58,799 nucleotides of DNA from an uncultured virus (IMG/VR IMGVR_UViG_3300021957_000006) (taxonomy: Duplodnaviria; Heunggongvirae; Uroviricota; Caudoviricetes), in IMG/VR virus record IMGVR_UViG_3300021957_000006; one strand, given 5' to 3'. Position numbers and translations under genes: made by a program. Below, piece after piece: positions 12,125 through 58,523 of this stretch. Position 1 is the first letter of the stretch. The number at the start of each line of letters is the position of its first letter. The notes below the pieces were generated by a model. It made no database searches. It saw only the letters and a program-made list of their open reading frames with translations, and was not told the DNA's origin.

Positions 12125-12153
12125 ATTATATAGACTTATTTATAGTTAGTCAA
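12125..12153 (-). promoter_or_regulatory. Dual gp32 promoter: sigma70-type TTGACT-N17-TATAAT with a late TATAAATA (12137-12144) inside the spacer
   Basis: Read directly on the minus strand: TTGACT AACTATAAATAAGTCTA TATAAT. Confidence 0.75.
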
Positions 12154-12376
12154 CTGGCAATGTATTACCTTTAGGTAAATAATTGAGGTTCATTGCCTCT
12201 ACCTCAATCTTCTCTTTGATGCTGCCTGAGACATACTTGCGTATGTCTTCCAGGTCTAGCTCAATATCTTCACAGATGTGAATAATAGCATCCATATAAC
12301 TATACCGATGCTCTCTTACTTTTCCTTCCACTAGTTTTGCGAATTTGTTTTTTGTTAGAAACTGTTCTTTTGCCAT
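12146..12376 (-). CDS. gp33: Late-promoter transcription coactivator gp33
   Basis: F...VE..V......YMDAI...CE....D.E......S..IKEKIE.EA..LN.L; next to gp32. Confidence 0.9.
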   Translation of the reverse strand: MAKEQFLTKNKFAKLVEGKVREHRYSYMDAIIHICEDIELDLEDIRKYVSGSIKEKIEVEAMNLNYLPKGNTLPVD

Positions 12377-15742: not shown

Positions 15743-15772
15743 AAAAGGGGGGCTTACTGCAGAGCCCCCCTT
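15743..15772 (-). terminator. Intrinsic terminator
   Basis: GGGGGGCT-loop-AGCCCCCC followed by TTTTATATTTT. Confidence 0.75.
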
Positions 15773-15915
15773 CGCATCTGCATTTAACGTATGCAGAAAC
15801 CGACTGGGTTTTCTTCTACGGTACCAGTTCTTTTACCGACCTAAGTTAGAGGGCCACTTCCATACTTAGGGTTTATCGGGTACGTTTGACGACGTTGTCG
15901 AGCTTTCCCCTTCGC
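15743..15915 (-). ncRNA. Candidate structured RNA (three hairpins plus a terminator)
   Basis: Stems CCTAAGT/ACTTAGG (+CCGA/TCGG), ACTGG/CCAGT and TCTGCAT/ATGCAGA in a GC-richer intergenic stretch. Confidence 0.4.
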
Positions 15916-16183: not shown

Positions 16184-16260
16184 TGGCGAACACGGAAGGA
16201 TTCGAACCCTCGGCCTAGTGCTTAGAAGGCACTTGCTCTATCCAGCTGAGCTACGTGTCC
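16184..16260 (-). tRNA. tRNA-Arg(UCU), CCA encoded
   Basis: GGACACGTAGCTCAGCTGGATAGAGCAAGTGCC-TTCTAA-GCACTAGGCCGAGGGTTCGAATCCTTCCGTGTTCGCCA; full cloverleaf, anticodon TCT. Confidence 0.95.
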
Positions 16261-50529: not shown

Positions 50530-50750
50530 ATTAAAGTGCCACATTTCCTGTTGCTAAGCAAGTGGCCAGCTCCCTGTGATTATGCAGCTAGTGCAAATCC
50601 AGATGGTGCAAAATTGTCGTTTGCATTTACGTTTTGTAAACTAGAATACATGTCGATCCTATTTCAGCCCCATCAAAAATACACATCATGTACTTGTGGT
50701 GGAGCTGTCCGGTACTGCCCCGGAGTCCAAATACCCCTTATCGCGCTTAC
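50530..50750 (-). ncRNA. ssrA: Two-piece (circularly permuted) tmRNA, alphaproteobacterial type; tag ANDNFAPSGFALAA
   Basis: Acceptor piece GGACTCCGGGGCAGTACCGGACAGCTCCACCA (CCA ends at 50697), 25-nt spacer, then GGGGCTGAAATAGGATCGAC (from 50671); GGGGCTG/CAGCTCC stem with G3:U70; tag ORF 50624-50580. Outer ends approximate. Confidence 0.93.
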
Positions 50751-50756
50751 CCATTA

Positions 50757-50785
50757 ATTATATAAGAAAGCCCGAAGAAGTGCAA
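50757..50785 (-). promoter_or_regulatory. Early promoter TTGCAC-N17-TATAAT driving ssrA
   Basis: Near-consensus; overlapped by an 11-bp inverted repeat (50770-50780 / 50794-50804). Confidence 0.8.
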
Positions 50786-50840
50786 CTTTTTTTCTTCTTC
50801 GGGCCCTTTTTTTTCAGAGTATGGTATTTTTACCATACTT

Positions 50841-56083: not shown

Positions 56084-56701
56084 TTAAGCAGCTCCGGTGC
56101 CTACTTCCATTCGCTTACGAAGTTGCTGTAAGAGCAATCCATAAACTGGGAGAAAGACTACAAACGATACTGCGATCTTAAACACAACGTCTACTGATGC
56201 AATCTCTAGCCAATTAGCACGCATGAACTCATCTGGTCCATATGCGAATGCAGCCCAGAAGAACGCATAGGTATCTAAGATGTTAGCAAACACAGTAGAG
56301 ATAGCTGGAGCTACCCACCACATATCTGTTAGCTTCTCACGAATACGTTGAAAGATAGAAACATCTAGCATCAAACCTAATGCATATGCAAGAGCGGAAG
56401 CAAACCCAATCATAGGAGTAGCAATAATACTACTAATAATAATCGCCGGTACAAAGGCAATAGCAATAATCTGACGAGCAACATACTTATTAGTTAGTCG
56501 TACAGTTAAGTCAGTAGCAACAACAATAAGAGGAAACACAAACATGCCCCAAGTAAAGTTAAGATTGAGTACTGGAATAACACCAGCAATCTGCACTGTA
56601 TAGTTTGCTAATGCAATGATTACAAGATGCAATACTACAAGTTTACCGACGAGAGATAAACTCTCGTCTCCGAAGTTAAAGTGACGTTTAATTAGTTCCA
56701 T
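56084..56701 (-). CDS. yhhQ: Queuosine-precursor (preQ0/preQ1) transporter, YhhQ/VUT family
   Basis: I.LANY.VQ, TWG.F.FP.I..ATDLTVR, AS..AY..G..LD..IF..IR, WW.AP..S....N.LDT..FF..AF, D...K. Confidence 0.88.
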   Translation of the reverse strand: MELIKRHFNFGDESLSLVGKLVVLHLVIIALANYTVQIAGVIPVLNLNFTWGMFVFPLIVVATDLTVRLTNKYVARQIIAIAFVPAIIISSIIATPMIGFASALAYALGLMLDVSIFQRIREKLTDMWWVAPAISTVFANILDTYAFFWAAFAYGPDEFMRANWLEIASVDVVFKIAVSFVVFLPVYGLLLQQLRKRMEVGTGAA

Positions 56702-56711
56702 TAGTTTTTCC

Positions 56712-57506
56712 TTAAGCTAAAATTTGTTGAGCATGAGTAAGAGCTTTCTCATACGGTACAGGTCCAGTCTCATCAGCATATGCAACAGGGTCAGGACGAC
56801 CTAGTTTAATAAATGCTTCAAGACGTTCTACAGAAGATGAGCTCTTATAATCAGAATACCAAACACCATTATGCTGCATAGGCTTATACGAAGTATTAGT
56901 ACGTTTATATACTTCATCAAAGTCTAAACCTAAGTCATCACATAGTACTTGACCATCCTTTAAGATATCAAACTTATCTAGTTCTAGGTAAGGAGTGAAA
57001 TAAGTCACCTTATCAGCATCCCAGTTACCTTCACGAAATGCATGATCATCAGCATCACGAAACTCCTGACGACAGTCAGGATATACTGCATGATCGCCAG
57101 CATGAATGCCTAGAGCGATAGCAGTTTCTTCATCTGTATCTTTAACCACGCTAAGAGCTGCTGCTTGTACAATAGAAGCAAAGATCTTATTACGGTTAGG
57201 TACTACAGTTTCTTTCATCGTCTCTTCTTCGTAATGACCTTCTGGCACATCTGCACCTCCGGTTACTAACGTAGAAGATAACAATGATACTAATCCATCT
57301 AACTTAACAGGCTGATACCTGATTATATGCCCATGTATTGCAAGATAGTATACTAGTTCTTTAGCACGCTCTAATTCACAAACGTGCTTTTGTCCATAAT
57401 CAAACGACAAAGCTGTTACATTACTTGCGCCTACTTCTTTAATAGCACGCAATAGTAGAGTAGAGGAGTCCATTCCTCCTGATAATGATACAACGATATT
57501 TTTCAT
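56712..57506 (-). CDS. queC: 7-cyano-7-deazaguanine synthase
   Basis: SLSGGMDS, FDYGQKH..E, T.VPNRN.IF, GIHAGDHAVYPDCR.EF. Confidence 0.92.
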   Translation of the reverse strand: MKNIVVSLSGGMDSSTLLLRAIKEVGASNVTALSFDYGQKHVCELERAKELVYYLAIHGHIIRYQPVKLDGLVSLLSSTLVTGGADVPEGHYEEETMKETVVPNRNKIFASIVQAAALSVVKDTDEETAIALGIHAGDHAVYPDCRQEFRDADDHAFREGNWDADKVTYFTPYLELDKFDILKDGQVLCDDLGLDFDEVYKRTNTSYKPMQHNGVWYSDYKSSSSVERLEAFIKLGRPDPVAYADETGPVPYEKALTHAQQILA

Positions 57507-57519
57507 TTAGTTCTCCAAT

Positions 57520-57565
57520 ATGAAAGCGGTGTGTTGTTTAAAGTGGTTAGCTTTCATGAACCACT
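57520..57565 (-). promoter_or_regulatory. H-type RNA pseudoknot in the queC leader (candidate riboswitch/operator)
   Basis: S1 AGTGGTT/AACCACT, S2 ATGAAAGC/GCTTTCAT, then ATT-GGAG SD. Confidence 0.6.
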
Positions 57566-58523
57566 ACTGCCTCATAGTCTTTGAGGTAAGAGTATAAGCA
57601 TCTGAAATAGAGTTCTTATACAATAGATTAAAGCTTGATGCTCTAATAGGGTTAATGTCAATACCGCCTCTACGTGTATAGAGACAGGAGACAACAAGCT
57701 CTGACGGGCCTAAAAGGTCCCATAGACGTTTGTATACACATTCACAGATCTCTTCGTGAAAATGATTCTCCTTACGCATCGAGACAATATACTGCATTAG
57801 CGACTCTGGAGTAATAGTTTTAGCTCCTTTTACATGAATATAAATATCACCCCAGTCGGGCTGATTAGTAACGCGACAGTTAGAGCGAAGAGAGTTAGAC
57901 ATATAACGAGTTGCTTTACCATCACTTTCTACCACCTGTAAGATATCTGGACTTTCATTATAGTGACTAAAGTCAATATGTTCAACTGCTACATGCTCTT
58001 CTAGCTGTGTCCATGATCCAGCCATAGGCTTAGCATAACCAGCATCTTCATTAATATGTAATACTACATTGAGATCTTGCTCATCCTCACATTTAAGAAC
58101 TTCAAGCATATCTTTCCATACTGTCTCTTCTACATTTGCTCTTGCAACTGTAATAGTAGAGCCCATCTTAGCCATATTAAACGAGTTTAGATATAGTTTA
58201 GCAGACTTCGATTCAACAATATTCTCTGAATGAGATGCATAAGACCAACGCAACCAACCAGAGATAGGAAAGCCATTATCAAGTAAGCAACTAAACTCAT
58301 AAGAGTTCCAAGTATCGATACCATTAAACTCTTCACCAGTTAAGTTATACTGAGTACGATTAAGATGACGAGGAATACCTACTAGTAGACTTTTATCTAC
58401 TTCATCAGGCGTTTCATAACGCATCATAGTTTTACCGTCAGAGGTCTTACCTAAGACCTTGCTAGCAATCTGTTCAATTTCATCCATCTTTAGCTCTTTC
58501 CTCTTCAATAGCTTCCTTAGCAA
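57564..58523 (-). CDS. queF: NADPH-dependent preQ0 reductase QueF, bimodular type (likely start MDEIEQ at 58487)
   Basis: D.W..YE.S.L...G.P, IVESKS.KLYLNSFN, LRSNC.VTNQPDWG, FHE...E, YTRRGGIDINP.R, RQ end. Confidence 0.93.
   Translation of the reverse strand: MLRKLLKRKELKMDEIEQIASKVLGKTSDGKTMMRYETPDEVDKSLLVGIPRHLNRTQYNLTGEEFNGIDTWNSYEFSCLLDNGFPISGWLRWSYASHSENIVESKSAKLYLNSFNMAKMGSTITVARANVEETVWKDMLEVLKCEDEQDLNVVLHINEDAGYAKPMAGSWTQLEEHVAVEHIDFSHYNESPDILQVVESDGKATRYMSNSLRSNCRVTNQPDWGDIYIHVKGAKTITPESLMQYIVSMRKENHFHEEICECVYKRLWDLLGPSELVVSCLYTRRGGIDINPIRASSFNLLYKNSISDAYTLTSKTMRQ

Follow-up and report, generated by a model that had tools for sequence, protein, structure and literature searches.

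A conserved pseudoknot between queF and queC

The DNA analyzed here (the window, 58,799 nt) is the terminal part of a linear T4-like phage record of 120.8 kb (58% complete). It carries queF and queC one after the other on the minus strand and stops shortly upstream of queF. The short region between the two genes can fold into a 44-base H-type pseudoknot, which raises the question of whether this knot is a genuine RNA element and, if so, what it does for queC. An initial annotation of the sequence had described stems of 7 and 8 bp with loops of 1, 1 and 14 nt, a Shine-Dalgarno sequence (SD) outside stem 2, and flanking queF and queC genes. The described fold is exact on the minus strand: 57565-57559 pairs with 57548-57542 in 7 Watson-Crick bp (stem 1), 57557-57550 pairs with 57527-57520 in 8 bp (stem 2), and the loops have the lengths given. 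The GGAG lies 3-5 nt beyond the knot, both neighbors were identified as QueF and QueC by Pfam, the queC ATG is at 57506, and the queF TAG (57566-57564) shares two bases with stem 1 (Table 1). The 8-bp stem 2 is present in the window copy and proved to be specific to its lineage. Of 33 SD-type cores of related leaders, 17 have a stem 2 of 6 bp, while lengths of 7 bp and 8 bp are found in 8 cores each, and the conserved core is therefore taken to have a 6-bp stem 2 and a 3-nt loop 1.

Table 1. Features of the queF-queC region in the window
Feature	Position	Strand	Remarks
yhhQ-type transporter (PF02592)	56084..56701	-	Pfam; downstream of queC
queC (PF06508)	56712..57506	-	Pfam; gene controlled in the proposed model
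Alternative hairpin, stem-2 3' strand with queC start	57501..57525	-	-4.5 kcal/mol; window lineage only
Shine-Dalgarno GGAG of queC	57513..57516	-	outside the knot
Stem 2, 3' strand	57522..57527	-	6-bp core; reaches 57520 in the window copy
Loop 3	57528..57541	-	14 nt, A/C-rich; conserved AYAC at 57532-57529
Stem 1, 3' strand	57542..57548	-	first A invariant
Invariant U	57549	-	directly 5' of the 3' strand of stem 1; 93/93 cores; candidate ligand contact
Stem 2, 5' strand	57550..57555	-	6-bp core
Loop 1	57556..57558	-	3 nt in the conserved core; two bases can lengthen stem 2 here
Stem 1, 5' strand	57559..57565	-	7 nt; last U invariant; first two bases within the queF stop codon
queF (PF14819 + PF14489)	57564..58487	-	Pfam; upstream gene

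Taken alone, the window knot is only moderately above chance: two perfect knots with 7 + 8 bp were found in the 120.8 kb genome, versus one in 12 Markov control genomes. We accept it as real because of its conservation and not because of these single-copy statistics.

Relatives of QueC were collected from viral, metagenome and genome collections (80 loci per retrieval), and leaders could be cut for 381 of 401 loci, giving 279 distinct sequences, 209 of them viral or metagenomic. A structure-only search with no sequence constraint detected an H-type knot in 120 of these 209 leaders, compared with 7 of 418 shuffled sequences. Although the search was blind to sequence, loop 3 ends in AYAC in 117 of the 120 matches, and the 3' end of the knot lies 13-23 nt ahead of the start codon in 118. 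With a wider descriptor, the element is carried by 146 of the 209 leaders and absent from 63.

A set of 93 distinct cores, re-registered on the helix junction, revealed which bases are fixed. The last pair of stem 1 is U-A and the base preceding its 3' strand is U in all 93, counts that are slightly helped by the re-registering, which moves one base where that U could also pair. The fourth stem-1 pair from the junction is G-C in 90 cores, the second and third pairs vary, and the set contains 44 distinct stem-2 helices and 12 distinct stem-1 helices. The fixed bases (the last U-A of stem 1, the U before its 3' strand and AYAC) thus converge at the junction of the two helices. The first base of loop 1 is variable (U in 39, A in 26, C in 20 and G in 8), and no conserved G partner for the C of AYAC is present in loop 1 of the 93 cores.

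Covariation among phage queC leaders had been suggested as a check on the knot, and both stems do covary. In 23 long copies of equal length, 99.7% of cells pair, which exceeds all shuffled and slid controls, and 5 of the 13 pairs change on both sides. Since these copies were selected by structure, the covariation count leans towards structure, and the structure-only 120/209 is the fairer test. A looser pattern scan returned 120 matches, mostly chance; both full stems were present in seven, six of which precede queC.

The element occurs in two forms that share one core. The long form, to which the window copy belongs, has a 7-bp stem 1, a 6-bp stem 2, a 14-nt loop 3 and an SD, while compact forms have a 5-bp stem 1, a stem 2 of 3-5 bp, a loop 3 of 8-11 nt and no SD; the SD is missing in 60 of the 93 cores. 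On a quick QueC tree without support values, presence or absence of the element flips 28 times, with descriptor misses scored as losses. Contigs from three of four metatranscriptome runs span the element without differences; strand, ends and level cannot be read from contigs, and they are therefore not taken as evidence of transcription.

Specificity for queC and for phages

The core descriptor gave a single match in the phage's own genome, namely the window element. In 5.1 Mb of redundant loci, it gave 225 matches within 60 nt of queC and only five other distinct places, of which one is a queC with an uncalled start and four apparently lie within queE coding sequence. A model search detected a single copy in each long-type genome but no copy in two compact-type genomes, and no second copy ahead of queD was seen by eye in five queD leaders, which overlap or abut the coding sequence upstream of them.

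The cellular genome collection supplied 71 leaders, of which one carries the element. It lies on a 6.8 kb contig (L364) whose genes are exclusively of the phage modification type, and the same contig accounts for the only carrier among 151 genomes of one class. L364 is binned in a Sediminibacterium MAG and holds queC, a DpdA3-like gene, queF, a formyltransferase gene and the element; it is probably a phage contig. T4-like phages and Flavobacterium-type phages alike carry the element together with queC. Of 50,697 phage records, the one with the best QueC match (62.6%) is the cultured Flavobacterium phage immuto_2-6A (NC_055915.1), which has a compact copy before queC, directly ahead of KNV73_gp028.

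No match to the element was found in Rfam at E values up to 10; at the gathering score, Rfam 15 gave no riboswitch in the window and no match to the element in 13 related loci. Thus, the element is real, conserved, specific for queC and uncatalogued.

Relation to preQ1 riboswitches and other known pseudoknots

One of the closest known systems is the preQ1-I riboswitch (RF00522). Both RNAs are small H-type pseudoknots with an A-rich loop 3 and are located before queC or other que genes. The five outer stem-1 pairs of the element equal P1 of the Rfam PreQ1 consensus, its loop opens with UU in the window, its A-rich tail ends in a conserved C, the G-C pair four positions from the junction (90 of 93 cores) is a further shared feature, and the compact members, with their 5-bp stem 1 and loop 3 of 8-11 nt, come close to it in size. 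By consensus alignment, from which this equivalence is inferred, AYAC would correspond to A30 and C31 in loop 3 of type I.

The initial annotation had described the element as not a textbook preQ1-I match, and this was borne out by the negative Rfam PreQ1 search and by the pocket bases. According to PMC11625349, the preQ1-I ligand sits between both helices and is read by a C, a U and an A; that paper and PMC8752633 state that the class requires U6, a floor formed by a G-C pair, and a cytosine immediately 5' of the second strand of P1. In the family register of the element, by contrast, the position of the specificity cytosine is occupied by U in all 93 cores, the closing pair is U-A throughout and not G-C, and U6 is not kept. 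In a register possible only for the window, in which P1 is formed by the five Rfam-like pairs, G-C and UU are present, but AA replaces UC and the specificity C is again missing. Because the defining cytosine is missing in either register, the element is not a member of preQ1-I. It also differs in that its stem 2 is a full helix of 4-8 bp in most copies and never uses the SD, that no terminator follows it, and that it was found here on phage contigs only. Judging by the alignment, the scaffold appears to be shared while the pocket has been rebuilt, and the element may descend from preQ1-I.

Genuine-looking preQ1-I aptamers did score in the same Rfam search tool. One lies on a viral-collection contig (L538, 493-536, +) before a transporter-like frame, with 38.4 bits against a cut-off of 39. 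The other, on a second viral-collection contig (L593, 493-536, +), scored 23.1 bits; it lacks an SD and stops 18 nt short of an uncharacterized gene. No genuine preQ1-I was found among the 151 sampled genomes of one class.

The preQ1-II and preQ1-III riboswitches (RF01054, RF02680) have helices of about 7 and 6 bp with a single junction U, an outline like that of the long form. The junction U is conserved in the element as well, and in those classes it reads the ligand. However, both classes fold as HLout knots that possess additional helices, U-A-U triples and a conserved loop-1 C pairing in trans, whereas the element has only two stems, a variable first base in loop 1 and no Rfam match.

The leader pseudoknot of T4 gene 32 is a phage H-type knot that, like the element, lies upstream of a start codon and outside the SD; it binds its own ssDNA-binding protein and has no link to queC. 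In the window, a second perfect pseudoknot (12157-12208, -), with stems of 8 and 6 bp and a hairpin in loop 3, was observed about 90 nt ahead of the gene for the gp32 ssDNA-binding protein. It occupies the last codons of a short open frame, which we take to be gp33-like, and a late-promoter box (TATAAATA) lies downstream of it at 12137-12144; this knot could serve a read-through message as an operator of the gene-32 type, or it may be a chance product. A strong G/C hairpin at 15745-15782 (+), whose loop can pair downstream, is probably a terminator-type stem of the opposite strand.

Genomic context and candidate ligand

A dCTP deaminase-like protein is encoded further downstream of queC and the YhhQ-type transporter. 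The window also contains a tRNA gene (16187-16260, -) and a permuted tmRNA of alphaproteobacterial type (50535-50789, -), the latter of which hints at an alphaproteobacterial host. A QueC fragment 93% identical to that of the window was noted on a contig in a Rhodobacteraceae bin (L383).

A contig with a 100% identical QueC continues past queF with genes for a formyltransferase and an unannotated protein, and folE. One protein encoded on it is 55% identical to the DNA guanine transglycosylase (DpdA3) of immuto_2-6A, and the formyltransferase is 47% identical to that phage's formyltransferase (DpdN). In PMC10516641, DpdA3 and DpdN form the pathway through which fdPreQ1 takes the place of every guanine, and fdPreQ1 is reported as measured in the DNA of cultured immuto_2-6A. 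Because relatives of DpdA3 and DpdN are encoded nearby, the context is DNA modification and not tRNA queuosine. In one relative (L348, 599-2258, +), two DpdA3-like frames are arranged in tandem, the second of which is longer and divergent and has no Pfam match.

In 49 virus records searched, queF and dpdN occur together in 11 (8 distinct leaders), all of which carry the element, and neither gene is present in any of the 16 records without it; weak PF14489 matches on frames of 210-230 aa were taken as FolE cross-matches and left uncounted. Another 22 element carriers, including seven of the nine near-complete ones, show neither queF nor dpdN. A DpdA3 relative was found in 16 of 16 genomes checked, DpdA3 in all 15 near-complete genomes tested, and an ArcS domain in none of 16. 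These and the related counts are not independent, as the genomes are related.

With queF and dpdN missing from seven of nine near-complete carriers, and ArcS from all of them, the pathway step common to the carriers ends at QueC. This favors preQ0 (or ADG) or the QueC substrate CDG over preQ1 as the putative ligand; a host QueF could still supply preQ1 to phages that have no queF of their own. The element is dispensable, given that 63 of the 209 leaders lack it, including those of six of the 15 near-complete DpdA3/QueC phages.

Proposed mode of action and alternatives

We propose that the element is a ligand-stabilized riboswitch that gives feedback on queC by steric block, and assign this reading a probability of roughly 0.45. 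A 7-deazaguanine intermediate, probably the preQ0 made by QueC, would dock where the two stems meet; the knot would thereby be stabilized and the loading of ribosomes hindered. Synthesis of QueC would then drop, so that the switch would be OFF by steric block and not by SD pairing, and such feedback would curb production of the modified guanine placed in phage DNA. Small-molecule binding, the identity of the ligand and the OFF direction are all inferred. A parallel is offered by a preQ1-I aptamer of Carnobacterium antarcticum that, according to PMC10018353, still represses when moved off the SD to positions 13-24 nt ahead of the start codon but does not do so at 29 nt. The knot of the element likewise lies upstream of the SD and within this repressing range; unlike that engineered spacer series, it would be a natural case, with another pocket and a putative ligand. 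Steric block is favored because the distance is the conserved feature of the element and 13-23 nt fits the Carnobacterium range.

Several observations count against a steric-block riboswitch. The specificity cytosine of preQ1-I is missing, 63 of 209 leaders do without the element, and in the window lineage a start-codon hairpin would give the opposite sign. With 13-15 Watson-Crick pairs, the long form may not need a ligand to fold, a fixed distance to the AUG is also expected from tight gene packing, and neither a conserved switch structure across the family leaders nor a terminator near the element was found. Conserved junction bases are also known in ligand-free viral pseudoknots.

The explanation that ranks second is a constitutive knot that needs no ligand and either guards queC mRNA against degradation or determines how fast it is translated, its fixed bases forming only junction triples. 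The long copies, being all Watson-Crick, are probably stable alone, and no alternative fold is conserved. In 28 of 33 SD-type cores, stem 1 touches or shares bases with the stop codon of the upstream gene, and terminating ribosomes could therefore open the knot. However, the compact copies, with only 3-4 pairs in stem 2 and with junction mismatches, look too weak to fold unaided, and a generic stabilizer need not be confined to queC. We regard this explanation as unlikely.

Ranked third, and likewise improbable, is a translational operator bound by a phage protein (QueC or DpdA3), for which the fixed loop bases would be protein contacts. Autoregulation of T4 gene 32 is a precedent, the association with queC in both T4-like and Flavobacterium-type phages and the presence of DpdA3 in all 15 near-complete genomes agree with such an operator, and a location adjoining the initiation region suits a repressor. 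On the other hand, the Pfam scan of QueC showed the QueC domain with a weak NAD-synthase overlap and no RNA-binding domain, six of the 15 DpdA3/QueC genomes do without the element, and the likeness to the preQ1-I consensus is left unexplained.

A riboswitch of the opposite sign follows as the fourth reading and is rather doubtful: a ligand such as CDG would stabilize the knot, draw the 3' strand of stem 2 off the start codon and raise queC translation. The knot-free fold of the window pairs 57525-57515 with the edge of the SD and the AUG, so that an open knot leaves the start codon buried in this hairpin; this suggests an ON sign in the window lineage. Opening the start region costs 6.0 kcal/mol in this fold versus 2.5 with the knot, and none of 15 random-strand controls reaches 6.0. 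Across the family, however, the hairpin fails as a conserved ON switch: only 7 of 42 SD-type leaders exceed the random-strand control by 1 kcal/mol (means 5.2 vs 4.7), and among the other leaders 3 of 75 do (means 2.65 vs 2.71).

A queuosine-sensing leader peptide controlling queC through ribosome speed is highly improbable: the 16-codon uORF pointed out in the initial annotation does exist in the window, with four NAC codons and a stop right at the queC start, but no more than 8 of 33 SD-type cores keep 16 codons in frame with queC, and the remaining ones differ in both length and frame. Any ATG at all is present in just 1 of 60 SD-less cores, and the AAC/CAC triplets are dictated by stem 1 and loop 3. 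The uORF was rejected as a by-product of the RNA sequence.

Three further candidates were rejected. Readthrough or fusion of queF and queC would find both genes in the same frame in the window. However, TAG serves as a normal stop codon in this phage, ending 20 of 91 long ORFs; in relatives the stop is TAA and the frame is shifted, and there is another stop ahead of the queC ATG. For a frameshift stimulator, inspection by eye found no slippery heptamer upstream. For transcription attenuation, there is no terminator nearby, and promoter-like sites occur at chance level.

Novelty and significance

No published description of this queC-leader phage RNA was found in the full-text papers searched; large motif surveys may list the element in their supplements. 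The main text of PMC5737381 has no passage on queC or queuosine, and the phage paper PMC4342423 cites no more than a review. In the full-text literature searched, phage-encoded riboswitches are rare, and none tied to phage DNA modification was found. Cultured immuto_2-6A, which has fdPreQ1 in its DNA, possesses a compact copy and so makes the question open to direct testing.

The broader reading is held a little more tentatively than the steric-block riboswitch as such: that these RNAs are a phage-only class derived from preQ1-I with a rebuilt pocket, sensing preQ0 or CDG, acting by steric block without SD contact and metering whole-genome guanine replacement. If so, a preQ0 or CDG sensor would extend an aptamer fold that is among the smallest to a new ligand. 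The element would also provide a natural test of riboswitches predicted, in PMC10018353 and PMC11625349, to regulate without sequestering the SD; it would bear out in nature the SD-independent type foreseen by the preQ1 field and would work in both SD-using and SD-less hosts. For the phages themselves, it would mean that those replacing all their guanines meter the supply of the precursor.
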